DNA from: an uncultured Candidatus Saccharibacteria bacterium | GTDB taxonomy: Bacteria > Patescibacteriota > Minisyncoccia > Phycocordibacterales > UBA9973 | DNA: 64,000 nucleotides | Assembly: GCA_964384645.1 (NCBI GenBank) | Contig: CAYLKL010000003.1 | Span: forward strand, 9,101 to 73,100 | Direction: 5' to 3' | Part shown: in pieces, positions 5,120 to 54,634 of the stretch | Numbering within the stretch: position 1 is the first letter of the stretch | Layout: each line of letters opens with the position of its first letter | Notes under the pieces: generated by a model | What the model saw: the letters and a program-made list of their open reading frames with translations, nothing else | Told to the model about the DNA's origin: nothing | Database searches by the model: none | Position numbers and translations under genes: made by a program

Positions 5120-5620
5120 ATGGAATACCCACCAAAAGATGACGTAGATATATTAGAAGATGAGCCAGTGCAGATATCTAAGGAGAAACCTATTGAAAAA
5201 AGACTTCTTACTGTAAATGAGCATGGCTTAAGTAAAGATTATTTAAATGAATTCAATGTTACCAATCTATGGATTAAGGATTTGCTAGCAGACGAATATG
5301 ATAAAAATAACCCAGAAGAGCTACTGGATCTTAAAATTGTGACGAGTGGCCTTAATAACAAATTCCAAAATAAGGAGTTGAAAAAATATACCGAAAGACT
5401 ACGAGAAGAAGAGTATGGAAATGTTAAAAATGAAAAAAACCAAGCACTAATTGGTGAACTTGATGAAAAAATAGAAGAAATATATTCAATAATGAACGGA
5501 GTTGAACTTACTCCTGAAAATATTGATCAAAACAAAGATAAACTTAAAGAAGTATTAGAAACATACGATGATATAAAATCTCTTGTAGAAGAAGGGGTTT
5601 CTAGAAGAATTGCTGCTTAA
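5120..5620 (+). CDS. Hypothetical acidic, coiled-coil-rich protein
   Basis: ORF 5084..5620; the likely start is the ATG at 5120 (MEYPPKDD). Lys/Glu-rich with no recognisable motif. Its end overlaps the map stop convergently. Confidence 0.4.
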   Translation: MEYPPKDDVDILEDEPVQISKEKPIEKRLLTVNEHGLSKDYLNEFNVTNLWIKDLLADEYDKNNPEELLDLKIVTSGLNNKFQNKELKKYTERLREEEYGNVKNEKNQALIGELDEKIEEIYSIMNGVELTPENIDQNKDKLKEVLETYDDIKSLVEEGVSRRIAA

Positions 5621-15688: not shown

Positions 15689-15827
15689 AAGGGTAAAATA
15701 AATAGCTCTCCAAAGAGCTAGAGACAGATTAGCAGAAAGAGCCATACCTTGTCAAATTATTAATCAGTTAGGGTTGATATTTAGCCACAAATAGTTACTA
15801 TAAGAAAAACACTTTAAAAACTATCAT

Positions 15828-16754
15828 ATGCAATACACTAAAACACCCCAAAAATTACCCGTTTCTCCATTAGGAAATGGAGCTGGAATCATAAAAACAG
15901 AAGATGATTTCAACAAGTTTCTGAAAATTGAAGATATTCCAGAAATATTGATTGGAAGCATTACTTCCCTTCCCCGTGAAGGCAATTCCGGAAACACTTT
16001 TTATTCTGGGCCAGGATATACACTAAATGCACTCGGGTTGCCGAACCCCGGAATTCAGTACTGGCTAGAAAATGATCGACTGAAAAAATGTGCAGAAAGG
16101 GCGCATAAAAAAGAAAAGCAAGTTGGGATAAGTATTGTTGGATTCAAAGAAGGAGAACTTGGAGAAATCGCCCAAATTGCCGAAGATGCTGAGATTGATT
16201 TCATTGAGATTAATGCTGGATGTCCTAATGTCTGGGCCGAAGGTAAACAAAAAGAAATTATAAGTTTCTCTTCTGAGGCATTATCCTTTGCTCTAGGAGA
16301 AATTTATGGGGCGACCGAAAAAATAAAAATTGGCTTCAAACTTTCTCCATATTCAAACCCCGGAGAACTTGAGAGAATTGCTAAATTCTTTAATCTCACC
16401 CACAAAGCCTTTGATAGAATCTCTTTCATTACCACCTGTAACACTTTCCCAAATTCATTCTCAGAAGATGAGGAAGGAAATCCACGAATAAGTGCCAATA
16501 ATGGTTACGGCGGAATGGCTGGAGAAGCAATCATTGCAATTGCTCTGGGGCAAGTAAAACAATTCAAAGCAGTCTTAATACCCGAAATTAAAATAAAGGG
16601 AGTCGGCGGAATAACAAAAGGAAGTGATGTAAGGAATTTTTTTAAAGCAGGAGCCTCGATGGTTCAGATTGTTTCAGCTTATTACCGAAACGAAGACCTT
16701 AGTGTCTTCTCTCGCATAAGGGCAGAGTACGAAATGCTTACAGAAAAAGTGTAA
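15828..16754 (+). CDS. pyrD: Dihydroorotate dehydrogenase, class 1 (Cys active-site base)
   Basis: FIEINAGCPN active-site motif and IKGVGGITKGSDVRNFFKAGASMVQIVSAYY C-terminal FMN-binding pattern. Confidence 0.7.
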   Translation: MQYTKTPQKLPVSPLGNGAGIIKTEDDFNKFLKIEDIPEILIGSITSLPREGNSGNTFYSGPGYTLNALGLPNPGIQYWLENDRLKKCAERAHKKEKQVGISIVGFKEGELGEIAQIAEDAEIDFIEINAGCPNVWAEGKQKEIISFSSEALSFALGEIYGATEKIKIGFKLSPYSNPGELERIAKFFNLTHKAFDRISFITTCNTFPNSFSEDEEGNPRISANNGYGGMAGEAIIAIALGQVKQFKAVLIPEIKIKGVGGITKGSDVRNFFKAGASMVQIVSAYYRNEDLSVFSRIRAEYEMLTEKV

Positions 16755-19660: not shown

Positions 19661-19721
19661 AATTTTTGTTTTTAAATGTGAATTTTCTTCAGATTAACCT
19701 TCTAGTTCAAGAATGTCAATC

Positions 19722-39822: not shown

Positions 39823-42800
39823 TTAGAAAACTGAAACTCTGGTTATCGTAATTATTGGCGTTGAGGCCACTTCTGCACCCTGAGCGTTATATCCTTTTGC
39901 TTGATATTGAATATCTTTTGTTATAAGCCCTAACGGTCTCCATGTGCAGTTAAAATTAGGTGCAGAACTTGACGTACACTCTCTTGTCAATCCATTGTTA
40001 TACCTAAAATATTTTACCTTTGTTATTGGCCCGCCAACTGAAACTTTCATAGTGTAAACTTGGCCACTTTGTACAGTAAGGCCGTTTGTTGGGAAAACCC
40101 ATGAAATATAAGTTCCAGCTAAAACAGACACATTAACAGCAGTTGATGTCGAAGTATTGCCCACGGCGTCAATAGCGATAGCAGTTATTGTATGATTGCC
40201 ACCTGATGCCCCTGTAGTATCCCACGAAACACTATAAGGTGAAGTTGTGTCTATTCCAACAGACACACCGTCTACTTTGAATTCAACAGAAGCAATGCCT
40301 GAAGCGTCGGTTGCGTTTGCAGATAAGGTTACAGTTGTTCCTACTGCCACACTTGACCCGTCTATTGGTGCACTAATTGAAACAGTTGGAGGTGTTGTTT
40401 CTGGACCACAACTCCCCAAATTCAAATTAGAATTTTCAGTAAGTATGAATTTATCAAGTTGGAAGTTAGCTGAAAGTCCTGTGAATGTGAAAGTGTGCGC
40501 AGTGTTTGGGGTAACAGAAGAGAAAACGATAGGTGTACCTGCTTGGTTTTTGTTACACCAACCAAAAGTTGTTGAGTTTGAAGAAATTGTTTGAGCTGTA
40601 CCTGAATCTACTTTTACTGTAGCAGTTGATGTTCCAGTTGCTGATTTTGCGAAATACCATAGGTAATATGTTTTTGGAATAGAACCTGTTGCGTCTCTTG
40701 GTTCAAATTTGTAAGTTGTTGATCCAGTGCTTGGGTTTATGTAAGTTGTGAAGTTTGTGTAGTCTCCCGCTGGTGTACCTGCTGGAGTTGTAGTAGTTCT
40801 TGATGCAGAACCTGTGTCATAGACTTCTGCTTCAAAACTAAAGTCCTTTGACCAGTACCATGGGTGTGATGATTCGTGCCATGCGTCTAGTTGGTAAAAT
40901 ACTGGTGATGCTCCTGTTTTATCGTAGATGTAGGTGGAGCCTTGGCGTCTTGAATTAAATTTCAAAACTTCCCCAGAAAGATTTATGTTAACTGGTGCAA
41001 TTTCTGGAACAGCACCATCCATATTAGTATATTGATTTAAGTTAGTTGCAATTAAATATTTATTTACAGAATTATCTTTTCTAACAGTAGTAAATGCATC
41101 CATTCTTCCACTCTTGAAAGCGTAACCCGGAGTAGTACTAGAAGAAGCATAATCAAGAGGTAAATCACCAGTCATAACATTACTATTTTTATAGAAAGAA
41201 TCTACATAACTAAATACAGCTTGAGAATAAGAAGGTATCATATTCTGCCAAATTTTTTGAGCAGGCCAACCATCTTCACTTGTTCCAACTCGATTAAAAT
41301 ATCCAGTATGGAAAAATTCCGATCCCATATTGTTTACGTTTTTAGAAAGACCCAACCATTGACCAGGTGAAATATTTTGCTCAGCTTTCAAATCCCAACC
41401 TGGAGACATGTAAGCTCCGAAGAATTTATCTCCTGTTGCTTGTTGTCTGCCCATTACTTTTTGGATAAAGTACATACCGTTCCAAGCAGAAATTTTACTT
41501 CTCCAGTTAGATGGCCATCTTGGATAAAAGTCAGGCGTTGCATAGTATTGGCCATTTATAGGAGATTGCATTTTTCTTGCCTCACTCCACTTAAATCTTG
41601 TAGCTTCTTCGTATCCATCTACTGCGTACTCTAAATATTTTGAACCAGCAAGTCCTGGGATAGACAAAATTATATCTCTATATGTTTGATTGGCCATATC
41701 TGAAACGGTTTTCGCAACGTAAGACTGTGCATCCATTCCAGAAGAACTTATTGCAGAACTAACTGCTGGATCAGAATTTAGAGCATTTGTTTCGTACTTA
41801 ACTAAAATTTCACCATTCTCACTTATTAGATCAATTTTTGGTGCTGGCTTTGTTAATTGATTCACAACGCTATTAACCATACTTTTCATAGCATTTCCGT
41901 CTGGTGTGTATTGTGAAAACTGAGAACTAAGAGGTCTCCAAACTTTTGAAGTTGTTACGTTTCCGTTTATATCAATAAACTGACCAGAAGAATTTTGTAA
42001 ATAATACTGGTTTCCAAATCCTTGGTACCTCAAACAAGGCATATTAGATCCACCTCCACAAGTTGAAGCACCTGAAAGCTGAGCTCTTAAAATAACCAAC
42101 TGAGTTGGTAAAGTTGGATTTGAATTTGAATAACTTATCAATCCAGGTGTCCCTGAAACACCTGTGTCCAAGTTACTACTTGTAAGACTTGGAGCTAGAT
42201 CTAAATAATAATTCCATTTCTTTGCCATTTCACCCGCGATTGAAACTCCAGCCTGAACTTGAGCAGCTGAGTGCGTGTAAGTAAAATCTGTTGGTGTAAA
42301 GTGTGCTAAATAATCTAGGTCGTTCCAGTTAAAATTTCTAAGTAATGTATGCCCTGTTTTATATCTAGGCAATGGAACACTTTGAAGTTGAGTTAACACA
42401 GTTGGTGGTGTTGTTGAATATGTTGTGTAAGGAGAAGTTCCAAGCTGTGCTCCTGGCAAATAATCCATTGTGTCAAAAGATGACGAAACAGCTTGAGCAT
42501 TTGGGGTATTTGTAATATTTGTTACCCAAGAATAAGACTGTCCGTTTGTTATTGAATCTAAATAGTGCTGATATATTAGGTTACCAGGCAAATCATTACT
42601 CCATAGTGCAAATTGATCTATTGCACCAACATATCTTCTTTCGGCGGTACTGTTACCAAAAAACTTTATGTCACCGTTTGAAGATTTTATTTTATTAGTA
42701 TTCGCAACTGTTTTTGAAAAACCAGTTGGCAAAACTCCATCAACCCAAATTTCTTTTACTCCATTTGAGTATTTAAAAACCATATGATGCCAATTACCGT

Positions 42801-43362
42801 CGTTGTAATATGCTGGAGATTTTGGCCCAACTCCATCTAAGGCAATTTGGAAATCGTCTGAAACTGAATTTGTACCAGTAGTTCCAGTTGTTGAAAATCT
42901 AATATAAGGAACAGAAGTACTTGCTACAGGACTCTCAAATAAGATAGAAAAAGAATTATCAGTAGTTGTCATAAAATTTGAAACCAATATGTCGTCAGGT
43001 TTCCAAATAAATTCAACAGCAAAAGAAGAAGAAGCTGAAGTTGGTGTTTTCCCAATTGTTTGATAACAACCAGAACTGCTTGTATAGTTCAAATACTTCC
43101 CAACTGGACCATTTGATTGTTGAACAAATGGACAACTCGTCCCATTTGTAAATGTCGAAGATCCGATGGTCGCAGAGTTCCAAGGATTTCCTTCAAATTG
43201 CCAGTACGAATAAGGCTGAATCGGAGTTGTTACAGCGTTATACGTTGCAGCCAACTGTCCCCCAAAAAATCTAGATAAATTAAATGGAGACAAAAAATCT
43301 ATAACTAATAAAATTACTAATAATAATACAACTGATAAAATTAAACTCTTTTTCTTTTTCAT
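39823..43362 (-). CDS. Giant surface protein 1 (1179 aa): signal anchor, LamG/concanavalin-A-like domain, large conserved central domain, C-terminal Ig-like domains
   Basis: N-terminal TM. DGNWHHMVF LamG-type motif. C-terminal ...VTLSANATDASGIASVEFKVDGVSVGIDTTSPYSVSWDT Ig-like repeats. Paralog of the downstream gene. Confidence 0.6.
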   Translation of the reverse strand: MKKKKSLILSVVLLLVILLVIDFLSPFNLSRFFGGQLAATYNAVTTPIQPYSYWQFEGNPWNSATIGSSTFTNGTSCPFVQQSNGPVGKYLNYTSSSGCYQTIGKTPTSASSSFAVEFIWKPDDILVSNFMTTTDNSFSILFESPVASTSVPYIRFSTTGTTGTNSVSDDFQIALDGVGPKSPAYYNDGNWHHMVFKYSNGVKEIWVDGVLPTGFSKTVANTNKIKSSNGDIKFFGNSTAERRYVGAIDQFALWSNDLPGNLIYQHYLDSITNGQSYSWVTNITNTPNAQAVSSSFDTMDYLPGAQLGTSPYTTYSTTPPTVLTQLQSVPLPRYKTGHTLLRNFNWNDLDYLAHFTPTDFTYTHSAAQVQAGVSIAGEMAKKWNYYLDLAPSLTSSNLDTGVSGTPGLISYSNSNPTLPTQLVILRAQLSGASTCGGGSNMPCLRYQGFGNQYYLQNSSGQFIDINGNVTTSKVWRPLSSQFSQYTPDGNAMKSMVNSVVNQLTKPAPKIDLISENGEILVKYETNALNSDPAVSSAISSSGMDAQSYVAKTVSDMANQTYRDIILSIPGLAGSKYLEYAVDGYEEATRFKWSEARKMQSPINGQYYATPDFYPRWPSNWRSKISAWNGMYFIQKVMGRQQATGDKFFGAYMSPGWDLKAEQNISPGQWLGLSKNVNNMGSEFFHTGYFNRVGTSEDGWPAQKIWQNMIPSYSQAVFSYVDSFYKNSNVMTGDLPLDYASSSTTPGYAFKSGRMDAFTTVRKDNSVNKYLIATNLNQYTNMDGAVPEIAPVNINLSGEVLKFNSRRQGSTYIYDKTGASPVFYQLDAWHESSHPWYWSKDFSFEAEVYDTGSASRTTTTPAGTPAGDYTNFTTYINPSTGSTTYKFEPRDATGSIPKTYYLWYFAKSATGTSTATVKVDSGTAQTISSNSTTFGWCNKNQAGTPIVFSSVTPNTAHTFTFTGLSANFQLDKFILTENSNLNLGSCGPETTPPTVSISAPIDGSSVAVGTTVTLSANATDASGIASVEFKVDGVSVGIDTTSPYSVSWDTTGASGGNHTITAIAIDAVGNTSTSTAVNVSVLAGTYISWVFPTNGLTVQSGQVYTMKVSVGGPITKVKYFRYNNGLTRECTSSSAPNFNCTWRPLGLITKDIQYQAKGYNAQGAEVASTPIITITRVSVF
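40407..40951. repeat. Copy A of an intragenic duplicated block (identical to 45627-46171)
   Basis: 40432-40951 is 100% identical to 45652-46171 at a constant offset of 5220. Near-identity extends back to ~40261 / 45481. Confidence 0.9.
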
Positions 43363-43440: not shown

Positions 43441-46400
43441 TTATTTAACTTTAATATTTTTTGTTGTTGTATTTCCGGCAACATCAACCGCTTGAACATT
43501 TATTGTAGAAGTTCCAAACCCCCACAACACAGACGGAACCGTAAAGCTGCAACTGTAAGAACTTGGTGGTGTTGTTGCACTTGTAAGTGTACATTTTGGA
43601 GTAGTAGATGTTGCACCCAAGAAGAATTTAACTTGCTTTACAGAAACATTATCTGTAACTGTTGCTATAAATGTTACAGGACTTGTGTTTGATACATTTG
43701 CGTTATTAGCGGGACTTGTGATTGAAACAGTCGGAGCAGTCGTGTCTGCCACTGTTGTTGAAATAGATACTGAAACAGCTGAAGAAGTAGAAGAATTTCC
43801 AGCATTGTCAGTTGCAATTGCAGTAATTGTATGACTTCCAGAAGTAAATCCTGTAGTGTTCCAAGAAATACTATACGGTGAAGTGGTTAATGTTGATCCA
43901 TATTGATTTCCATCAATATAAATTTTGACATTTTGTATACCAGAAGCATCACTTGCGTTCGCTGTTATTGTAGTATTAGATCCACCAGTCACTACAACTC
44001 CGTTAGCTGGACTTGTAATTGAAACAGTTGGAGCGGATGTATCAGTTCCCACTGTGATAGTTTCGGAAGTTGTATTATTTGCCTCATTTACTTCAGCAAA
44101 TCTATTAATATCATCAACAACCGCCGTTATGTTATGTGAACCGCCGGTCGCGTTCCATGCTGTAAATATACCAGTATCCGCTGACTGATTTGAACAATAA
44201 GCAGAGCCTGTACCCATACCAAGATTTACAGTTTTTCCAGCTCCAATTGAAGTTGTTTGAGCGTCTGAACAACCCAAAGCTACTCCATCCATCATAAACA
44301 TAACACCAACAACCATACCTTCTGGAGTGCCAACTGTTCCCTGGTTTTTAACAGTTGCAGTAAATGAAACATTTGCACCAACACTAGGACTTACAGGTGA
44401 CCAAACAATATCAGTCACAAGAACATCTGGTTGTCCTGTTGCATTTGAAACAGTCACTGAAACATTTGCTGAAGTTGCATTGTTTCCAGCTGCATCAAAT
44501 GCTTTTGCTTTTACTGTATGTGTTCCGTTTGAAAGAGTTGAACTATCTAATGTAACAGAATATGGAGCAGATGTATCAGTGGCAAAGGGTGATGTTGATG
44601 AATCAGTAAAGAACTGAACAGTAGTAACCCCAACATTATCACTCGCATTTGCACTAACGGTAACTAAACCTGAAACAGTTGCACTAGGTGTTGGTGCGGT
44701 AACTGAAACAGTTGGTGCAGTTGTGTCTGCGGGTGGTGTTGTTACGTTGTTTACCGTAACACCAAAGGCTGTAGTTGTTGTTGAGTTTGAACCTGGAACA
44801 GTAACTTTGTCGTAAGCTTTTGCTGTAATTTGATAACTACCGTTTGCAACACCTGTTGTATTCCAAGAACAAGAAAATGTTCCTGATGTTTGCCCCGTAG
44901 CTGTTGCTGTACAAATTAGAACTGTTCCTCTGTAAAACTCTATATGATTTATTCCAGTTGTGTCTGTTGCAGAAGCTGTCATTGTAACAGTGCCAGAAAG
45001 TGTTGCTCCAGAAACTGGAGAAGTTACCGTCGTCGAAGGACCCGCAGTATCAATATTTATTGATACTTGATTTGAAGCTGATGAAAAATTACCAGAACTA
45101 TCTTTTGATTTAACAATATACGTATGACTAGCATTTGCTGACGGTGTGTCTGTATAACCAAGGTTTGTTACAGCGCTTGTATTAATAGCAGTTGTAGAAC
45201 CATCTCTATATATATAGTAACCTTCAAGACCTGAACCAGAATCAGTTGATCCACCCCAAGATAAAACCGCACTGTTTGATTGTCTTGTAACAGAAAGTGT
45301 TGTTGGTGTTGTTGGAGCAACTGTGTCAGGAAGAGAAACTGTAATACTAACTGAAGAGTTTGCAGTATTACCAACAGTGTCAGTAGCTGTCGCTGTTATT
45401 TGATGTGAGCCATTCGTAACACCCGTTAGTGACCACGAAACACTATAAGGTAAAGTTGTGTCTATTCCAACAGATACACCGTCTACTTTGAATTCAACAG
45501 AAGCAATGCCTGAAGCGTCGGTTGCGTTAGCCGACAGAGTCGCTGGTCCAGTAGAAATTGTTGCTCCAGTTGTTGGCGCAGTAACTGAAACAGTTGGTGC
45601 TATTGTGTCAGTTGGAGTAGTTCCACCACAACTCCCCAAATTCAAATTAGCATTTTCAGTAAGTATGAATTTATCAAGTTGGAAGTTAGCTGAAAGTCCT
45701 GTGAATGTGAAAGTGTGCGCAGTGTTTGGGGTAACAGAAGAGAAAACGATAGGTGTACCTGCTTGGTTTTTGTTACACCAACCAAAAGTTGTTGAGTTTG
45801 AAGAAATTGTTTGAGCTGTACCTGAATCTACTTTTACTGTAGCAGTTGATGTTCCAGTTGCTGATTTTGCGAAATACCATAGGTAATATGTTTTTGGAAT
45901 AGAACCTGTTGCGTCTCTTGGTTCAAATTTGTAAGTTGTTGATCCAGTGCTTGGGTTTATGTAAGTTGTGAAGTTTGTGTAGTCTCCCGCTGGTGTACCT
46001 GCTGGAGTTGTAGTAGTTCTTGATGCAGAACCTGTGTCATAGACTTCTGCTTCAAAACTAAAGTCCTTTGACCAGTACCATGGGTGTGATGATTCGTGCC
46101 ATGCGTCTAGTTGGTAAAATACTGGTGATGCTCCTGTTTTATCGTAGATGTAGGTGGAGCCTTGGCGTCTTACTTTGAATTTCAAATTTTCTGTTGGTGT
46201 AACTGTTGTTGCAGGATATGTATCACCACCAAAAGATATGTCAGCTAGTGATTCTTCTGCGGCATTACCTTGATAATTTGACCAAGGGTTTTCCATACCT
46301 GTTATGACAAATCTATTAGCACTGTTTTGCTTTCTGGCAACAACAAGTTGGCCAGGATTTCCAGTATAAAATCTAAATCCAGGATTTGAGTCTGGCGGGT

Positions 46401-48618
46401 AAACCAAACGTGTTGTATCTCCACGCATCATTTTTCCATTTTTAAGAATATCTTCGTAATAACTTGTTACACCTTGTGCATATGAAGGAGTTGATGCTTG
46501 CCATACATAGTTTTCAGGATAAAGGTTGTCTGCAATGTTTGGTTCTATATTGAAAACACCTGGATAGAAAAATTCAGCACCTGTTGCAGCTAAAACTTTT
46601 GTAAAACCAAGCATTTGAGCTGGTCGAACATTGTTTCTTTCAACTCTATCCCAACCAGCAGATATAAATGGAGAATATAGATTATCTCCAGCTGCTAATT
46701 CCCCGTTTCTACTATTTACAACCCACTGCCATCCGTGCCAAGCACTACTCCAATATTTCCAGTTCCATGGATATCGAATATAAAAATCAGGAGTAGAGTA
46801 ATACATACCATTTATTGGATCATTTACTTTTCTTGCTTCTTCCCATTTAAATTCATATATATGTTCACCTTCAATAGCGTACTCTGTGAAAGTTGAATTT
46901 GAAACAGCTTGAATACTTTTTATTTTATCAACATAAGCTCTTTCGTTTGTATAAAATTGTCTAGCTACATAAGTATACGCATCAAGTCCAGATGCATTTT
47001 TTGCAGCCAAAACAGCTGGGTCATTATTAACTATATTTGTTGTACTTTCTGCTGTATACGGAGGGAAAACTTCACCGTTATCATTAATGATATCGATCGC
47101 ACGTGTTGGATATTGAGCAACTCTATTTGGTATAGAATTTAAAACAGTTTGAATGTGCGACTTTGCAGCTTCTCCGTCTGGAGCGTAACTTGAAAGATAA
47201 GTTGAGACAGGCCTCCATCTTTTATCGGTTGTTACATTTCCATTAGGGTCCAAAAATTGCCCTGATGAATTTTGTAAATAATGAGTACTTGGTAAATTTT
47301 GAGAAGAGATACAAGATCTTGTACAAGCTGAAGTATAAAGTTGAGCTCTAAAAGATGTTGCGGCTATAGGAATAAAATTTGCACCAGGTGTAATGTATTG
47401 CTGTTCATTTGCCAAAGATTGATCTGCCGCAGAAAAACCATTTGAACTTCCTGTGTTATTCGTAACTTGAATATGGTAGTTCCATTTTGTAGCAAGTTGT
47501 CTGTTTATGTCCTTTGACTTTGCGTGGTTTGTTGTAGTGTTCCCAACTGAAGTACCTGAAATACTTGATGAAGCTAAGTTTGAAAGATAATCATATGCCA
47601 ACCAGTTACCGACATTCCTTATTAAGGTATTTGAAGATTTATAACGAGGCAAAGGATAAGTTTCAAGCTGATCAATAACAGAAACATTTACTCCTGGTGT
47701 TTGTCCTGATGAAGAAGAAAGATTTGTTCCTGCCATAAAATCAAGAGGGTTGTAAACTCCAGCAACTGAATCAGCTGATGGAACATTTGTGATTGCTGTT
47801 GTAGTTGAATAGCTAAGGCCTGCACTTGCATTATTGTGGTGTTCTAAAATTAAGTTTGGTGGCAAAGATTTGTCATACAGCGCAATTTGATCTAGCGAAC
47901 AATTACATTGAGTGTACTCTGCTGAATTAAGGCTCGAGAATTTTACAGCACCTGTTGTAGATACTGCTGTGTTAAACGAATACCCAGCTGGAAGTTGTCC
48001 GTCAATCCAAAATTGTACTTTTTGTGAAGAAGAAGTTGGGTCATATTGAATAACAAAATGGTGCCAATTTCCATCAGCAATATATGCTAAAGATTTTCTA
48101 CCAGCCTCATCTAGGTTGATATAAGAATCAACGCCATTAAGTACAAGTTTCCACCTAGCCATACTACCGTTTGGATTTCCTCCAACTGGTGTCTGGAACT
48201 CAAGCTTAAAATTAGAACCAAATGAGAAAATTGTTCCAGCTTCAAAAGTTTTTGAAGGCTTAAACAAAAATTCAACAGCCCAACCACTCGCAGAAGGAGT
48301 TATGTTGCCTGCTGTATTACCAGACCCAGATAGATCTATGTAATTTCCAACCTTTCCGCCTGTTTTTGGTGTCCAAGTAGAAGTTTCTGTTCCTCCGAAT
48401 TGCTGAGATCCAATAGTTGGAGTTTTTTGACCAGCAGTAGTTGTGTCAGAGAACTGCCAATAACTTACTGGAGTGATTGGACTTGTGACAGCTGTATAAG
48501 TGGCAGCCTTTTGGCTATTGCTTAATATTTGCGGATCAATAGGAGAAATTACCTTTGAAAACAAAAAAACCGCAATCACAAAGAATGATAATAATAATGC
48601 CTTATTTATTTTTTTCAT
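43441..48618 (-). CDS. Giant surface protein 2 (1725 aa): signal anchor, LamG-like domain, conserved central domain, multiple Ig-like domains, FN3 domain, CARDB domain
   Basis: DGNWHHFVI. FN3-like LSWGGSTDSGSGLEGYYIYRDG. CARDB-like DVLVTDIVWSPVSPSVGANVSFTATVKNQG...EVNEANN. At least 6 Ig-like repeats (TAPTVSVTAPT...). Shares a ~200-aa identical segment with gene 1. Confidence 0.6.
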   Translation of the reverse strand: MKKINKALLLSFFVIAVFLFSKVISPIDPQILSNSQKAATYTAVTSPITPVSYWQFSDTTTAGQKTPTIGSQQFGGTETSTWTPKTGGKVGNYIDLSGSGNTAGNITPSASGWAVEFLFKPSKTFEAGTIFSFGSNFKLEFQTPVGGNPNGSMARWKLVLNGVDSYINLDEAGRKSLAYIADGNWHHFVIQYDPTSSSQKVQFWIDGQLPAGYSFNTAVSTTGAVKFSSLNSAEYTQCNCSLDQIALYDKSLPPNLILEHHNNASAGLSYSTTTAITNVPSADSVAGVYNPLDFMAGTNLSSSSGQTPGVNVSVIDQLETYPLPRYKSSNTLIRNVGNWLAYDYLSNLASSSISGTSVGNTTTNHAKSKDINRQLATKWNYHIQVTNNTGSSNGFSAADQSLANEQQYITPGANFIPIAATSFRAQLYTSACTRSCISSQNLPSTHYLQNSSGQFLDPNGNVTTDKRWRPVSTYLSSYAPDGEAAKSHIQTVLNSIPNRVAQYPTRAIDIINDNGEVFPPYTAESTTNIVNNDPAVLAAKNASGLDAYTYVARQFYTNERAYVDKIKSIQAVSNSTFTEYAIEGEHIYEFKWEEARKVNDPINGMYYSTPDFYIRYPWNWKYWSSAWHGWQWVVNSRNGELAAGDNLYSPFISAGWDRVERNNVRPAQMLGFTKVLAATGAEFFYPGVFNIEPNIADNLYPENYVWQASTPSYAQGVTSYYEDILKNGKMMRGDTTRLVYPPDSNPGFRFYTGNPGQLVVARKQNSANRFVITGMENPWSNYQGNAAEESLADISFGGDTYPATTVTPTENLKFKVRRQGSTYIYDKTGASPVFYQLDAWHESSHPWYWSKDFSFEAEVYDTGSASRTTTTPAGTPAGDYTNFTTYINPSTGSTTYKFEPRDATGSIPKTYYLWYFAKSATGTSTATVKVDSGTAQTISSNSTTFGWCNKNQAGTPIVFSSVTPNTAHTFTFTGLSANFQLDKFILTENANLNLGSCGGTTPTDTIAPTVSVTAPTTGATISTGPATLSANATDASGIASVEFKVDGVSVGIDTTLPYSVSWSLTGVTNGSHQITATATDTVGNTANSSVSITVSLPDTVAPTTPTTLSVTRQSNSAVLSWGGSTDSGSGLEGYYIYRDGSTTAINTSAVTNLGYTDTPSANASHTYIVKSKDSSGNFSSASNQVSINIDTAGPSTTVTSPVSGATLSGTVTMTASATDTTGINHIEFYRGTVLICTATATGQTSGTFSCSWNTTGVANGSYQITAKAYDKVTVPGSNSTTTTAFGVTVNNVTTPPADTTAPTVSVTAPTPSATVSGLVTVSANASDNVGVTTVQFFTDSSTSPFATDTSAPYSVTLDSSTLSNGTHTVKAKAFDAAGNNATSANVSVTVSNATGQPDVLVTDIVWSPVSPSVGANVSFTATVKNQGTVGTPEGMVVGVMFMMDGVALGCSDAQTTSIGAGKTVNLGMGTGSAYCSNQSADTGIFTAWNATGGSHNITAVVDDINRFAEVNEANNTTSETITVGTDTSAPTVSITSPANGVVVTGGSNTTITANASDASGIQNVKIYIDGNQYGSTLTTSPYSISWNTTGFTSGSHTITAIATDNAGNSSTSSAVSVSISTTVADTTAPTVSITSPANNANVSNTSPVTFIATVTDNVSVKQVKFFLGATSTTPKCTLTSATTPPSSYSCSFTVPSVLWGFGTSTINVQAVDVAGNTTTKNIKVK
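45627..46171. repeat. Copy B of the intragenic duplicated block (identical to 40407-40951)
   Basis: See copy A. Antisense ORFs 40247..40594 and 45458..45814 in the ORF track are near-identical artefacts of this duplication. Confidence 0.9.
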
Positions 48619-48730: not shown

Positions 48731-50413
48731 TTAATGTATATCAAGTATTCTAATTCTAATTTTTTCATAACCTCCAAAAAAACTTTTTTCCACCAATCCA
48801 ACCATAGTAATGAAATCACCTTTTTTCATATCTATTTTGTAATCTTCAGGTTTTTTAAAAAAGGCAATGGCTTTAATTGCTTGCCCGTTAATACTAATCT
48901 CAAGCTCTGTATGGTTTTTTTCTTTACCAAAAGTCTTTACACCCAAAATAAGAGCATCTTTTAGTTCAAAAACAGGCTTTGGATTACCCATCCCAAAAGG
49001 GGCGAACTTTTCCATACTCGAAACACCGTTTCTATTAACAAAAAAACTGTCGAATTCTATAAAATTTTCATTTTCTTCATTATTCTGACTACTTGAACTT
49101 AAAAAAGCCTTCTCAAGTAACGCTGGCAGGTTATGTATTTCACCATCTTTAACAGAAAATCCACCTGCTTTTTTGTGGCCACCTATATCTATAAAGGAAT
49201 CTACTGTATTTTTCATTATTTCAACTACGTCAGCATTTCCAAAAGACCTACAAGACCCCTTAATAACCTCTTTTTCTCCATGAGTCCTACCCCAAACAAA
49301 TGTAGTCTTTTTATATTCTTCACATAACTTACTGGCCAAAAGACCTAAAAGCCCAGGACTCCATGTCGGACTACCGACACAAATGACATTTTCGAAACCT
49401 CTAGTTTTTATGCTTTTATTGGCTTCTTTCATCATAGTTGCGACGATTATCTTTCTTTTGTCAGAAAGTTTTGCTAAATCCTCAGACAAAATATCTGCTG
49501 AATCTTTATCTTCCGCACTTAAAAGCTGATATGCCTTGTAAGCCTCATCCATTCGGGAAGCCGCATTTATCTTTGGGGCAATTGAGAAATTTATATCGTC
49601 TTCTGTGATATTTCTAATATTTATCTTTGATCTATCCGCCAAGGCTTTGAGTCCGAGACGTTTTCCTTTTCTCATAACCATAAGGCCGTATTTTGCCAAA
49701 ACCCTATTTTCATCAATTAAAGGAACTTGGTCAGCAATAGTAGAAAGTGCCACCAAATCAAGTAACCATTTTTCTTTACCGCGTGGATATTTAAAATACT
49801 CATGGTATTTATCCAAAAAACCTAATATAACTTTGTAGGTTATACCTGTTCCACAAAGTTCTCGGAATGGATATTTAGAATCTTTTAACTTTGGGTTTAT
49901 TAGGGCGAAAGGCTTTGGTAAAACATCCGGCGCTTCGTGATGATCAATAACAATAACGTTTACTCCATTTGCTTCAGCAAAATCAATCGCCTCTCTAGCC
50001 GTCGTCCCTAAATCTATAGTTATCAGCAAGGTTGTTTTTAAATCTATGATTTTCTCAAGAATCCCTTGGTGTAGTCCGTAACCTAAAGTATTTCGATCAG
50101 GTATGTAAACTTCTAAATGTCTAACACCTAAACTTCTTAAAAATTCAGAAAGTATTGTTGCCCCAGGTATTCCATCACAATCATAATCTGAATATATAGC
50201 TATTTTCTCACCCGCCGTAATGGCACTAAAAATTCTCTCAATCGCTTTTTCGAGATCTGGTAACAGTTTAGGATCATGCAAATCCCTTATATAATCAGGA
50301 TTTAAAAACTTTTCTTTTTCAATTTCTGTTTTAATACCTATTTTTTCAAATAGTTTGTCGAAAACATTTTCCATCTTGGATTCATTAGGGGTCTTTTGCG
50401 TAAGCATGGTCAA
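48731..50413 (-). CDS. recJ: Single-stranded-DNA-specific exonuclease RecJ
   Basis: DHH motifs SDYDCDGIPG, ITIDLGT and VIVIDHHE, plus DHHA1 GGHKKAGG. The true start may be the internal MENVFDKL. Confidence 0.85.
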   Translation of the reverse strand: MTMLTQKTPNESKMENVFDKLFEKIGIKTEIEKEKFLNPDYIRDLHDPKLLPDLEKAIERIFSAITAGEKIAIYSDYDCDGIPGATILSEFLRSLGVRHLEVYIPDRNTLGYGLHQGILEKIIDLKTTLLITIDLGTTAREAIDFAEANGVNVIVIDHHEAPDVLPKPFALINPKLKDSKYPFRELCGTGITYKVILGFLDKYHEYFKYPRGKEKWLLDLVALSTIADQVPLIDENRVLAKYGLMVMRKGKRLGLKALADRSKINIRNITEDDINFSIAPKINAASRMDEAYKAYQLLSAEDKDSADILSEDLAKLSDKRKIIVATMMKEANKSIKTRGFENVICVGSPTWSPGLLGLLASKLCEEYKKTTFVWGRTHGEKEVIKGSCRSFGNADVVEIMKNTVDSFIDIGGHKKAGGFSVKDGEIHNLPALLEKAFLSSSSQNNEENENFIEFDSFFVNRNGVSSMEKFAPFGMGNPKPVFELKDALILGVKTFGKEKNHTELEISINGQAIKAIAFFKKPEDYKIDMKKGDFITMVGLVEKSFFGGYEKIRIRILDIH

Positions 50414-50415
50414 AA

Positions 50416-50826
50416 TTGTATCATGGAAACATGAATGACTGTATTTTTTGCAAAATAATCAAAGGAGAAATTCCAAGCTATAAAATTTATGAAGATGAAT
50501 CTTTTATTTCGTTCTTAGATATCAATCCAGTTTCTAAAGGACACGCCCTTATAATTCCTAAAAGTCACATTGAATGGATGCACGAGGCGGATGATAGTTT
50601 GATAAAAGAGATATTTGTATTAACTAAAAAAATGATGTTAAACATAAAGGAAAAGCTTCCGTGTGATTATGTGCAAATTGGTGTAGTCGGCAAAGATGTT
50701 CCACATTTTCATGTTCATCTAATACCTAGATCTTTAGAAGAGGCTGTTACTCAAACAACGAGACCACATGCTCCATACATGTCTCAGGAAGAAATAGATG
50801 AAATAGTAAATAAAATAAAAATGTAA
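50416..50826 (+). CDS. HIT-family (histidine triad) nucleotide hydrolase
   Basis: CIFCKII and the histidine triad HFHVHLIP. The start is possibly the internal ATG at 50431. Confidence 0.85.
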   Translation: MYHGNMNDCIFCKIIKGEIPSYKIYEDESFISFLDINPVSKGHALIIPKSHIEWMHEADDSLIKEIFVLTKKMMLNIKEKLPCDYVQIGVVGKDVPHFHVHLIPRSLEEAVTQTTRPHAPYMSQEEIDEIVNKIKM

Positions 50827-50830
50827 AAGA

Positions 50831-50860
50831 AAAAAAGCGACCTTGTGAGGTCGCTTTTTG
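50831..50860. terminator. Bidirectional intrinsic terminator (after HIT and after the small minus-strand ORF)
   Basis: Stem gcgacct-tgtg-aggtcgc with an A-run and a T-run. Confidence 0.75.
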
Positions 50861-50878
50861 TTAAGTCACAGCAGAGCT

Positions 50879-51013
50879 TTATTTTACCCAGGCAAAGTAT
50901 TTACCTGTTTCAGCTTTACTTTTAAAAGATACTCCTGTAAGTCCGAGGAAGAGGATAAGCACGAAGCCGATTACATAAACATTCTTGTTTGCTCTTTGAC
51001 GGATAATTTCCAT
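50879..51013 (-). CDS. Small single-TM protein (44 aa), unannotated sORF with its own consensus promoter
   Basis: Minus-strand ATG at 51013 and TAA at 50879-50881, encoding MEIIRQRANKNVYVIGFVLILFLGLTGVSFKSKAETGKYFAWVK. It is bracketed by a perfect promoter and the 50831-50860 terminator, and is below the ORF-track length cut-off. Confidence 0.4.
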   Translation of the reverse strand: MEIIRQRANKNVYVIGFVLILFLGLTGVSFKSKAETGKYFAWVK

Positions 51014-51056
51014 GTTTTTTTAGTTTTTAATTGGTTTAATTATTTAACTTTCTTTA

Positions 51057-51084
51057 ATTATACCATACATAGAGTTATTGTCAA
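51057..51084 (-). promoter_or_regulatory. Consensus sigma70 promoter (TTGACA-16-TATAAT) on the minus strand
   Basis: Minus strand reads TTGACA (51079-51084), a 16-nt spacer, then TATAAT (51057-51062). It points at the small ORF ~45 nt downstream. Confidence 0.55.
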
Positions 51085-51115
51085 GTCTCATTTACGGACA
51101 CTTATATAGACGAAT

Positions 51116-52243
51116 TTATGCCTTTTTTATTACAGCTTCTATTCCGACGAGAGTACTAAAGGCCAAAAAATCAAGTGTGGCACCCCCGCCAGTCGAAACA
51201 AACCTATATTTTTCAAGTTTATTTTCCTTTTCAAGGATAGCAAGCGTGTCTCCACCACCCAAATAAACATCCCCCGACACATCTGCCAAAAATGAAAGTA
51301 AATCATTCGTTGTTTTATCGAAACCGTTCTCGTAATTGCCTAGAGGTCCGTTCCAAAGTATCGTTTTTGAAACTCGAGCAAGGTCAAAAATCTGTTCCAT
51401 GCTTTTGTGCCCGACATCTACAATATTTTCATCTTCTGTTACTTCATTTAAAAGTCTTTCTCTTGTGCCGTTTGGTCCAGTCACAACTACGTCTACTGGA
51501 AGATGTAAATTTTCTCTTCCCAAAAAAGGCTGAGCGAGCTCTGGATTATCAGCCAAAGATATTCCTGTTTCAAAACCTTGTGCTTCAAAAAAGGAATTCG
51601 CTAAAGCACCGGCCACGTAAACATTGTCTGCTCGATCTAAAAAATTTTTCAGTAACGGAACTTTAGTGCTAATTTTTGCGCCACCTGAAATAAACAAAAA
51701 GGGGTGTTCTGGATTTTCAATAATTTTATTTAAATTCTCTATTTCGTTCCACATACCAAAACCAAAATAAGATGGTAAATATTTTGGAAGACCCACTACT
51801 GAAGCATGTGCTCGGTGTGAAACTGAAAAAGCATCATTTACATAGAAATCTGCTAGGCTGGCGAGATCTTTTGCAAAAGTTTCATCATTTGATTCTTCCA
51901 TTTTGTTTCGCCGAATATTTTCAACTAAAACAATTTCATTTTCAACTATACATTTCTTTATACTTTCGACTTCTGGCTTGTCACAGAAAGATGCTGTTAT
52001 ATTTTTTTGTTTTAACAAATCTATAAAAGGCAGTAGTGAGTCCTCTGTCTTACCTCGATGGCTTAAAATTATTATTTTGCATCCTTTTTCTTTTAGAAAT
52101 TCTATTGTTTTAATACTTTGTAAAAATCTCTGACTATTTATCATCGGAGCCCCTGGGACATTGTAATCAACTCGCAAAAGAACAATGTCGCCACGATGAC
52201 ACTGAAGATTTTCTATATTATGTTGATTTATTTTATCCTGCAT
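51116..52243 (-). CDS. pgk: Phosphoglycerate kinase
   Basis: VLLRVDYNVP and the hinge ...ISGGAKISTK... and GGGDT pattern. 375 aa. Confidence 0.9.
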   Translation of the reverse strand: MQDKINQHNIENLQCHRGDIVLLRVDYNVPGAPMINSQRFLQSIKTIEFLKEKGCKIIILSHRGKTEDSLLPFIDLLKQKNITASFCDKPEVESIKKCIVENEIVLVENIRRNKMEESNDETFAKDLASLADFYVNDAFSVSHRAHASVVGLPKYLPSYFGFGMWNEIENLNKIIENPEHPFLFISGGAKISTKVPLLKNFLDRADNVYVAGALANSFFEAQGFETGISLADNPELAQPFLGRENLHLPVDVVVTGPNGTRERLLNEVTEDENIVDVGHKSMEQIFDLARVSKTILWNGPLGNYENGFDKTTNDLLSFLADVSGDVYLGGGDTLAILEKENKLEKYRFVSTGGGATLDFLAFSTLVGIEAVIKKA

Positions 52244-53149: not shown

Positions 53150-54634
53150 TTATGGTGTTTCTTGCCAGCTAAATATAACGATACCGTTTCCCCCTTTACA
53201 TCCACTTCCTAGATTTGGAAGAAATGGATTAACTGCACCTGCACCACCACCACCCGAACTAATTCCTCCGCTTGTACAGCTTATCGAGCCCACACCTCCT
53301 TTTCCGGCATCCCTACTACCATCGTCGTTAAAGCTAGAAGCATTACCCCCAAGACCACCATTACCACTAGTACTACCAGAATGGACAACAGATCCATAAC
53401 TTAGCAGATCACCTGTTGATGTGTCTATCAAATAAGGCCACGCTGTGTACTTACCACTAGCTCCAGCTACTCCATTTTGAACATTTGCCCCTACTGTAAA
53501 AGACCCTCCTGTTCCACCAGCACCAGTTCCCGTTGAAGAAGATGGTGTATGTGGATTTACTATTATTTTTCCACCTAGTCCACCTTTTCCACCTTCAGCT
53601 TGAGCTACAACTGTAGATTGAGGTAAGGGACCTATAACCTTAGACTCTCCTCCGTTTTGTCCATCAGAAGCACCGTAACCAGATGGTGGACTATTAAAGT
53701 TTAAAATACTTGATACCCAACCACTAGGTGAGCCATAGAAAGAACCACTAACACCGTATCCTTTTTTAGTACCAGCACTACCGCCTGCACCAACTTGAAC
53801 ACTGTATTGCAAAGAAAGCTGTGTACCGATGCTATTAAATTCAGAGTAAGCTCCTCCACCACCACCTCCACCACCAGAGTTTATTTGACATTTTGCAGCT
53901 TGAGGTCCGGCATCATTAATAGTTCCAGGAGCACCCGATGTTCCAGAACAACCAGTAGAAAGATTATTTCCTTGACTAAATTGATAAGCGAGACCTCCCC
54001 CACCTCCTCCACCAGCACCGTTTATACTTACCCTAAGACTTCCCGCTACATATTTTACTGGTGTAATAAATATATTATTACTACAAGAACCTAACGGAGA
54101 ACTACAATCACCACTTGAGATTTGTGATCCAGAAGAATTAATAGAGTAAGTTTGATATTTAGTTGTGTTAACTACATTGCTTTCACTATTATCAGAAGAA
54201 CTTGTACAGCCCGGATCATTTGGATAGTCGACTAGTCCGTCACTATCATTATCCACGCCATCACTACACTCTGAAGTAGAAGTTGTTACCCCACAAAGAT
54301 AAAGTGTTCCGTTTGACTGAGCACAAACATGAGTATCGCCTGAATTTGTGTGTTGCAAGGTTGCAACCTTAAGTGTTCCAGTTCCAGGATCAGTAGTGTA
54401 ATCACCAACTGTTGTATCTCCAACCAAAAGTGATCCTCCAAAAACAGCAAGAGAATTTAACCCAAGTCCAGAATTTTTTATTTGGTTTGTTGTTCCAACA
54501 TTTACTGGACCCTGAGCATTATTACCAGGAGGCGGACCAGCTGGCGCAACCCAACTACCGGCATAAGAAATACCCGCTGACAATACTAGACCTATAACTA
54601 TTATTTTTAATCCATTTATAACTTGCTGTTTCAT
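53150..54634 (-). CDS. Secreted Gly-rich protein with a Cys-bracketed Asp-rich (TSP3/dockerin-like Ca-binding-type) motif
   Basis: Signal peptide. CSDGVDNDSDGLVDYPNDPGC. Two GGGGGGG runs and long GxGG low-complexity tracts. 494 aa. Confidence 0.5.
   Translation of the reverse strand: MKQQVINGLKIIVIGLVLSAGISYAGSWVAPAGPPPGNNAQGPVNVGTTNQIKNSGLGLNSLAVFGGSLLVGDTTVGDYTTDPGTGTLKVATLQHTNSGDTHVCAQSNGTLYLCGVTTSTSECSDGVDNDSDGLVDYPNDPGCTSSSDNSESNVVNTTKYQTYSINSSGSQISSGDCSSPLGSCSNNIFITPVKYVAGSLRVSINGAGGGGGGGLAYQFSQGNNLSTGCSGTSGAPGTINDAGPQAAKCQINSGGGGGGGGAYSEFNSIGTQLSLQYSVQVGAGGSAGTKKGYGVSGSFYGSPSGWVSSILNFNSPPSGYGASDGQNGGESKVIGPLPQSTVVAQAEGGKGGLGGKIIVNPHTPSSSTGTGAGGTGGSFTVGANVQNGVAGASGKYTAWPYLIDTSTGDLLSYGSVVHSGSTSGNGGLGGNASSFNDDGSRDAGKGGVGSISCTSGGISSGGGGAGAVNPFLPNLGSGCKGGNGIVIFSWQETP

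Follow-up and report, generated by a model that had tools for sequence, protein, structure and literature searches.

A probable membrane microprotein gene in the pgk-HIT gap of a Patescibacteria genome, a position that holds dissimilar short peptides in its relatives

Known small membrane proteins and the pgk-HIT locus

Small membrane proteins of fewer than 50 amino acids (aa), such as AcrZ, MgtS, KdpF, CydX and MgrB, bind larger membrane proteins. Many are expressed from signals of their own, escape annotation and show little sequence conservation. Here we describe a small open reading frame (sORF) of 44 codons on the minus strand (positions 50879 to 51013) of a 64-kb stretch of DNA, called the window below, from an uncultured bacterium of the candidate phyla radiation (CPR; Patescibacteria), namely, contig CAYLKL010000003.1 of assembly GCA_964384645.1. 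The sORF occupies the gap between pgk, the gene for phosphoglycerate kinase (PGK), and a convergent HIT-family gene, a position that we call the slot. It is like the AcrZ-type proteins in size and in having one hydrophobic helix, and no sequence relationship of these proteins to the sORF peptides was found. KdpF and CydX are encoded within the operons for their complexes, whereas the sORF has no adjacent partner gene, and allele replacement between constant flanks, discussed below, is to our knowledge not a described feature of AcrZ-type proteins.

Other described systems share some of these traits. The type I toxins (Hok, Ldr, TisB, Fst, TxpA and BsrG) are also short hydrophobic peptides with a charged tail, intergenic position, patchy distribution and rapid divergence. 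The sORF locus differs from theirs in being single-copy with a consensus constitutive promoter and in having neither a promoter for an antisense or adjacent small RNA (sRNA) nor a structured leader that would mask the ribosome site. In Actinobacteria, Pseudomonas and Bacillus, the gene for SecG often adjoins tpiA or the glycolytic operon, which we used only as a lead; SecG resembles the sORF product in being a small membrane protein whose gene comes right after glycolytic ones, but it has two helices, a Gly-rich loop and 70 to 110 aa, whereas the sORF peptides are single-helix. In polymorphic peptide loci (comC, blpC and agrD), pherotype or bacteriocin alleles are swapped by recombination between conserved flanks, and close strains carry divergent short peptide alleles, as in the slot. 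Those loci adjoin receptor, processing or export genes, whereas the neighbors of the slot are housekeeping genes and its peptides lack leader or cleavage motifs. Leaderless (class IId) bacteriocins are cationic and amphipathic and lie next to immunity and ABC-transporter genes; the core of the sORF peptide is uniformly hydrophobic, and the neighboring genes were tpiA, pgk, HIT and recJ in all loci.

Coding evidence for the 44-codon reading frame

The sORF is very probably a translated gene for a single-helix membrane microprotein of 44 aa, a confidence that extends to the gene and its translation and not to any function proposed for the peptide. Relatives were gathered through the identical peptide (L001 to L003) and through PGK homologs, and L004 came from a PGK-alignment scan of genome contigs; the same scan of metagenome contigs added no new relative. 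As the window, L002 and L003 do not differ anywhere in the locus, they were treated as a single observation; L001 and L007 (pgk 79 to 80% identical at the nucleotide level) are independent. Between the window and L001, the sORF differs at six sites, all of them third-codon positions and all synonymous, and the stop codon changes from TAA (window) to TAG (L001) with its position unchanged. The comparison with L007 gave 10 differing sites (8 third-codon) and two amino acid changes, V14L and F23S. Together, the three diverged copies have about 14 variable sites in 132 nucleotides (nt), about 12 of them third-codon (binomial p about 8e-5), and their pairwise nonsynonymous (dN) and synonymous (dS) rates are 0 to 0.02 and 0.24 to 0.46, respectively, with dN/dS of 0 to 0.06. 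The reading frame of this version of the gene, designated type A, is under strong purifying selection. Relative to L001, the sORF is the best conserved 100-nt stretch of the intergenic region (92 to 95% identity versus 72 to 88% in the flanks); the promoter spacer of L001 is changed at several positions and its leader has a 14-nt deletion, with both promoter hexamers and the TG extension intact. An earlier note, made from the letters of the window alone, had named loss of the frame in relatives as evidence against coding; in the type A relatives the frame is conserved.

The type A peptide has a hydrophobic helix from V12 to V28, with a net charge of +2 on its N side and +3 on its C side. Its Kyte-Doolittle mean over 17 aa is 2.55, and AlphaFold2 returned one continuous helix over residues 2 to 43 with a predicted local distance difference test (pLDDT) score of 87. 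Tryptic peptides expected from the sequence of the product are ANKNVYVIGFVLILFLGLTGVSFK and YFAWVK. An ATG open reading frame (ORF) of at least 44 codons appeared in 1.7% of shuffles of the type A transcribed stretch, and one with an equally hydrophobic 17-aa window in 0.02%. For the six peptide types found at this position in relatives (A to F; see below), an ATG ORF of the observed length was present in 0.3 to 2.7% of transcript shuffles and in 0.02% or less when an equally hydrophobic window was also demanded; multiplied together, the six ORF-length probabilities come to about 5e-12.

Expression signals in the gap

The layout of the gap between pgk and the HIT gene is as follows.

51116 to 52243, minus strand: pgk (phosphoglycerate kinase), the upstream gene (identical protein P0002 with PF00162; relatives annotated PGK)
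51085 to 51115, minus strand: block from the pgk stop to the -35 hexamer (..CGTCTATATAAGTGTCC.TAAAT..), conserved in alignments with relatives
51057 to 51084, minus strand: sigma-70-type promoter, with TTGACA at 51084 to 51079, a 16-nt spacer and TATAAT at 51062 to 51057
51014 to 51050, minus strand: predicted 5' untranslated region (UTR) of about 36 nt, A-rich, without a Shine-Dalgarno (SD) site, its start placed near 51050
50879 to 51013, minus strand: sORF, 44 aa plus TAA, MEIIRQRANKNVYVIGFVLILFLGLTGVSFKSKAETGKYFAWVK, from the ORF list
50860 to 50878, minus strand: short 3' UTR (19 nt between stop and hairpin), allele-variable and part of the replaced segment
50825 to 50859, minus strand: intrinsic terminator, a 12-bp hairpin (50859 to 50832) and T-run
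50416 to 50826, plus strand: convergent HIT-family gene (PF01230/PF11969 annotated on homologs)

The pgk gene ends in TAA, and the -35 hexamer begins 31 nt downstream. The first part of the block between them, CCGTCTAT, is retained even in genomes that lack the sORF, and the block may be an UP element or a pgk 3' element. The elements reported in the earlier note were all found at the positions given, namely, the perfect TTGACA-16 nt-TATAAT promoter at 51084 to 51057, the 44-codon ORF running from the ATG at 51013 to 50879 with exactly the peptide quoted, and a strong terminator after it. The spacer, moreover, ends in TGG, which gives a TG-extended -10. This is the sole 12/12 match to TTGACA-N16-18-TATAAT in the whole 64 kb (0.13 expected); at least one exact match occurred in 13 of 100 shuffles of the 64 kb, so that the promoter alone is just mildly unusual. 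Between TATAAT and the ATG lies a 43-nt A-rich stretch with a leader core, AAACCAATTAAAAAC (51037 to 51023, minus strand), that contains the motif TTAAAAAC. The leader and first codons fold at -3.7 kcal/mol (z of -1.09), and 31 of 200 shuffles fold as well, which makes the region essentially unstructured. An in-frame TAA three codons upstream makes the ATG at 51013 the first possible start, and the TAA stop is at 50881 to 50879.

The terminator hairpin reads AAAAAGCGACC-TCAC-AAGGTCGCTTTTT (50859 to 50832), with 12 pairs followed by the T-run. The stop codon of the HIT gene lies 5 nt from the hairpin, and recJ is the next gene, on the minus strand. Flanked by an A-run on one side and a T-run on the other, the terminator probably also ends the convergent HIT gene. 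The earlier note had regarded it as dedicated to the sORF, which did not hold up, the same hairpin being found directly after pgk in relatives without the sORF; it is the ancestral pgk/HIT terminator. There was no terminator-like site from 51116 to 50860, that is, from the pgk stop through the sORF, and read-through from tpiA-pgk into the sORF is therefore to be expected. We infer that a monocistronic mRNA of about 225 nt would start near 51050 and end at the shared terminator, and that it would be made constitutively at a high level on top of the tpiA-pgk read-through transcripts. Its translation would be SD-independent, as for nearly all genes of this genome, and the peptide would insert into the membrane of the cell itself as one helix.

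Alleles of the locus in related genomes

In every relative the gene order is tpiA-pgk-slot-HIT (convergent)-recJ, and relatives with the slot architecture span 49 to 100% PGK identity. The contents of the slot are listed below.

Type A (window, L001 to L003, L007 and L008, the last one cut): 44-aa peptide MEIIRQRANKNVYVIGFVLILFLGLTGVSFKSKAETGKYFAWVK
Type B (L009 and L029): 46 aa, MKKALSIVHPEIQSLILTVVVLGAIGIIAYGIELLNGGNFHTFVNL and MKKALSIRNPEIQTLALLVVALGVITFLAYVLAILNGGNFNTLVNV
Type C (L015 to L017): 37 aa, MTKAISVVSYVIEKNTNVATFAAMLIITAICFFAGAR; (L013 and L014): 34 to 37 aa, (MKI)MAKAISSVIENHTTTVAFVAMGILTLVLLLAGAR
Type D (L020 to L022, PGK 71%): MVKIINFVAPLASKEIIAILTAFLTVFGGIAVLAFYYGF
Type E (L023, PGK 70%): MQKIKENKGPLVLIASIAVVFIICLSLGYAIAGNFNFLLR
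Type F (L027 and L028, PGK 49%): MKKTLQILQTKKDFLNEAISLTLVAAIIIAVMENAIK, followed by a PG_binding_1 gene
Null (L004 and L010 to L012): pgk, 45 nt and the same terminator hairpin as in the window
No sORF (L025 and L026, PGK 50%, and a Saccharibacteria contig): a gene for a large PG-binding or surface protein in place of the sORF

Every relative with the promoter also has an ORF of 37 to 46 codons that starts at the same place and encodes one hydrophobic helix. All nine loci scanned preserve TTGACA and 11 or 12 of the 12 promoter positions; their spacers vary, most of them have the TG extension, and the promoter of L029 is a perfect match. The synonymous sites of pgk are saturated (dS about 1.1 to 1.3) between the window and most of these promoter-bearing relatives. 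Twelve loci of types A, B and C share the leader 14-mer AAACCAATTAAAAA without any change, and this 14-mer is unique to the slot; types D to F have kept only the A-richness of the leader and not its core. Types C to F preserve the structure of the terminator hairpin but not its sequence. All six types are strongly hydrophobic in the helix (17-aa Kyte-Doolittle means of 2.15 to 3.12), and only about 8% of the 34-to-50-aa ORFs of the window itself reach 2.0. Net charge on the N side is +1 to +3 in all types, and on the C side it is -1 to +1 in types B to F and +3 in type A. The N terminus of types B to F is thus most likely inside, and types C, D and F suggest a tail-anchored-like insertion; the topology of type A looks ambiguous due to the positive charge on both sides. 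The proposal of the earlier note that the sORF encodes a highly expressed small membrane protein gains support from the conserved reading frame with its almost exclusively synonymous changes, from the invariant hexamers and from the hydrophobic helix in every variant.

In the null genomes, the hairpin of the window directly follows pgk. The nulls have also kept a 22-nt remnant of the leader between the pgk stop and the terminator (19/22 identical, p of 0.013; L004 positions 5123 to 5190 and L010 positions 3623 to 3690), which indicates that they arose by deletion of promoter and ORF, in two deletions. The gene is ancestral to the group. From these comparisons, the sORF appears to be one allele of a positionally conserved, sequence-hypervariable microprotein locus. 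What seems unusual in it is that the expression signals and the architecture outlast the sequence of the peptide, with cassette-like replacement and loss among close relatives.

For the type D ORF of L020 (3691 to 3720), the gene caller had chosen an ATG just 2 nt beyond the -10 hexamer, which lengthened the frame to 49 aa. This upstream ATG probably precedes the transcription start, and the second one (39 aa) is the likely start. At greater distance (PGK about 50%), relatives have a gene for a PG_binding_1 surface protein of some 600 aa between pgk and HIT (L025, 3703 to 5493; L027, 3949 to 5753), so the gap is variable over a longer time span too; the L027 gene is split and contains a run of unknown residues. 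We considered whether type A might be a leftover signal anchor of the PG_binding_1 gene and rejected it, as there was no similarity (p of 0.65 to 0.85) and L027 has both genes.

Relationship between the peptide types

There are at least six peptide types, and homology between them is without support, the link being one of slot, promoter, leader and architecture. In Smith-Waterman comparisons against 2,000 shuffles, only the two forms of type C were significantly similar (p of 0.0005), and between-type pairs had p values of 0.03 or more, uncorrected. Two motifs seen by eye, M-x-K-A-[IL]-S-x-V at the N terminus of types B, C, D and F and G-[KN]-[FY]-x-x-[FWL]-[VL] at the C terminus of types A, B and E, failed shuffle tests and were not relied on.

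Within types, the two copies of type B (L009 and L029) have exactly 46 codons each despite 37 nt differences, and share the conserved termini MKKALSI..PEIQ and LNGGNF.T.VN. Their dN is 0.25 and dS is 0.645, compared with 0.057 and 0.663 for the pgk genes of the same genome pair, and in type C dN/dS is 0.47 versus 0.09 for pgk. L001 (type A) and L009 (type B) have 91% identical PGK (dS of 0.59), and their promoters and leaders are about 90% identical, but they cannot be aligned from the ATG to about 5 nt before the terminator (about 165 bp). With PGK so close, the rate at which types B and C evolve cannot account for the difference between A and B. The pattern is that of allele replacement by recombination in the conserved flanks or of divergent alleles maintained for a long time, and the low dS of type A fits a recent spread by recombination. 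The window is also 100% identical to L002 and L003 from roughly 51320 to 50400 (in L003 the identical tract reaches about 49500), and the remaining pgk is only 70 to 85% identical; this tract reflects either recent recombination between related populations, giving a mosaic, or an assembly that is chimeric.

A stronger version of the replacement model would make the pgk-HIT gap a hypervariable slot in which an invariant consensus promoter with its leader, and the terminator, act as recombination arms. Between these arms, close relatives among the CPR bacteria would swap, replace or delete stretches of ORF about 165 bp long, each coding for one hydrophobic helix and either unrelated to the others or of ancient divergence. 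We consider it unlikely in this full form. If true, it would imply balancing or diversifying selection on an abundant peptide exposed to something fast-changing, for instance a phage, a competitor or the cell on which an episymbiont lives, and a new kind of strain-specificity determinant in Patescibacteria. More generally, allele swaps and losses among close relatives hint at strain-level functional variation in host-attached organisms. The locus also illustrates that genes whose signals and helix persist, but whose sequence does not, can be validated by comparing positions rather than by homology searches.

Sequence similarity searches

The type A peptide was searched against a word-indexed set of 5.8 billion proteins and, exhaustively with HMMER, against 1.84 billion cluster representatives. 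The single match was an identical protein of 44 aa, which JGI lists as a "hypothetical protein" on three contigs from metagenomes. The sORF, which the earlier note had called unannotated, is thus not so everywhere. No further homolog of type A was found among the 1.84 billion representatives (about 15 billion predicted proteins), and a profile of all types returned solely its own input sequences. Against Pfam and NCBIfam at E values up to 10, seven peptides gave only sub-threshold helix matches (11 to 15 bits versus cut-offs of 22 to 95), with no match to Hok, Ldr, Fst, TxpA or any other toxin family in these databases. One of them was to SecE (13 bits versus a cut-off of 95) and was discarded as transmembrane-helix noise. 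SecG (PF03840), suggested by the tpiA-secG synteny, was likewise rejected, as none of the seven peptides, each of them single-helix, matched it even at E values up to 10. No paralog was found in the window in a family-profile hmmsearch of its 730 small ORFs, where the best other match had an E value of 0.03. The promoter-leader pattern was not found in viral contigs, which were screened for a phage origin.

With regard to RNA, the whole window had no match to Rfam 15 at gathering thresholds, and a permissive search at the locus (E up to 10) gave at best 26 bits or less versus cut-offs of 39 to 115, all on the terminator hairpin. There was no tRNA or tmRNA in the window, and no complementary target was found in it at up to 2 mismatches. 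Literature searches on SD use and small proteins in CPR bacteria gave nothing specific to the pgk-HIT slot.

Possible functions and alternative explanations

By analogy with AcrZ and similar proteins, the peptide might be abundant and assist or modulate a membrane protein or complex, and be neither toxic nor exported, a view for which we find the balance to be even. Several observations weigh against the reading of the sORF as a translated membrane microprotein gene. The grouping of types A to F as one family derives from position and architecture alone. In types B and C, dN/dS is 0.39 to 0.47 and the codon-position bias is weak (14/8/15), which makes these two, taken alone, only moderately convincing as coding. 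Promoter and leader are about 86 to 93% conserved versus 73% for the B and C coding sequence, so the RNA or its 5' end could have a function of its own. Finally, the dS of type A is two to five times below that of pgk in the same genome pairs, which means that part of its conservation comes from recent recombination and not from constraint alone.

The earlier note had also raised a type I-toxin-like peptide, that is, a membrane-depolarizing toxin curbed by an antisense or nearby small RNA. Such a module would fit the size (37 to 46 aa), the single hydrophobic helix, the lysine-rich C-terminal tail of type A and the possession of its own promoter, as well as a presence that varies between close relatives and the rapid sequence turnover. 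We nevertheless regard it as improbable. No opposite-strand promoter of at least 9/12 positions lies within 50831 to 51115 and none is conserved in the nine loci scanned, leaving every allele without an antisense promoter, a result that concerns control in cis only and is still compatible with an RNA encoded elsewhere in the genome. The pgk coding sequence ends 31 nt from the -35 hexamer and leaves no room for a divergent sRNA gene. The unstructured leader would leave the start codon open, and a perfect constitutive promoter combined with such a leader would be lethal if the product were a toxin. There is a single copy in the window, its position between core genes is kept down to 49% PGK identity, and no described toxin family was matched. 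An exported or host-directed peptide under diversifying selection, whether a leaderless bacteriocin, a peptide like the phenol-soluble modulins (PSM) or one inserted into the host by an episymbiotic CPR cell, would explain the allele swaps, with non-alignable ORFs between flanks that are about 90% identical at 91% PGK identity. It would agree with a dN in types B and C that is three to four times that of pgk at equal dS, with the null alleles, with the strong constitutive expression signals and with the spread of type A at low dS, compatible with a recent sweep or introgression. However, no transporter, immunity or processing gene is adjacent, every core is a plain hydrophobic membrane-spanning helix instead of a cationic amphipathic one, the peptides have no double-glycine or signal-peptide cleavage motif, and type A is under very strong purifying selection. 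We would give it little weight.

The conserved leader raises the further possibility that the locus makes a regulatory RNA, either an sRNA or a dual-function RNA acting through its 5' leader, the ORF being secondary or incidental. The invariance of the 14-nt core in 12 loci (types A, B and C) whose ORFs differ completely would speak for it, as would an upstream non-coding part more conserved than the B and C coding sequence and a promoter-to-terminator unit of sRNA size. On the other hand, the type A substitutions are codon-periodic, and six types of unrelated sequence all retain an ORF that encodes a hydrophobic helix. No Rfam family was matched, no stable fold is present besides the terminator, and the window has no complementary target at up to 2 mismatches. 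The leader core is missing from types D to F and overlaps the general pre-start motif of the genome. The proposal seems very unlikely to us, and a purely non-coding sRNA, offered as an option in the earlier note, is contradicted by the codon periodicity of the substitutions. The simplest alternative, a chance ORF in AT-rich intergenic DNA beside a fortuitous promoter match, could appeal to the single 12/12 match occurring in 13% of shuffles and to the ease with which T-rich DNA encodes hydrophobic stretches. It is effectively refuted by the comparative data, namely, the length-probability product over the six types, promoter hexamers that stay invariant across saturated divergence, the codon-periodic substitutions of type A and the hydrophobicity of all types, and we see next to no chance of its being right. 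The reading as a lineage-specific membrane microprotein gene would add a real, probably abundant product to the gene set of a poorly known CPR lineage.

Translation signals and neighboring genes

The GC content of the window is about 36%, and its closest named relative is a metagenome-assembled genome of "Candidatus Paceibacterota" with 82% identical PGK. SD sites are absent before nearly all genes of the window (about 47 ORF start regions), so the missing SD before the sORF is normal here. Several long genes, as well as the sORF, have the motif TTAAAAAC 15 to 18 nt ahead of their start codons. In the form yTTAAAAAC(T), it precedes many starts at this distance, for example at 15813 to 15828 on the plus strand and at 19676 to 19660, 11677 to 11660, 37542 to 37526 and 27776 to 27760 on the minus strand, and it may be a translation-initiation signal of the lineage's own. 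The sORF locus, a clean case of a strong promoter with an SD-independent leader in Paceibacterota, could help to define how translation starts there.

The most conserved part of the 4.4 kb compared was the region of the divergent HIT and recJ 5' ends (50290 to 50540), where the two genes start a few tens of nt apart. Here identity is 94 to 99% even with L001 and L004, for which the figure in pgk is only about 79%. A Gly-rich 494-aa protein with an N-terminal hydrophobic segment is encoded at 53150 to 54634 (minus strand). Elsewhere in the window, two giant minus-strand ORFs were found at 39823 to 43362 (1,179 aa) and 43441 to 48618 (1,725 aa), the larger of which has a homolog in L020 with Big_7 and CARDB repeats. 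The window, L001 and L002 each have different genes upstream of tpiA, a hint that surface proteins vary there.

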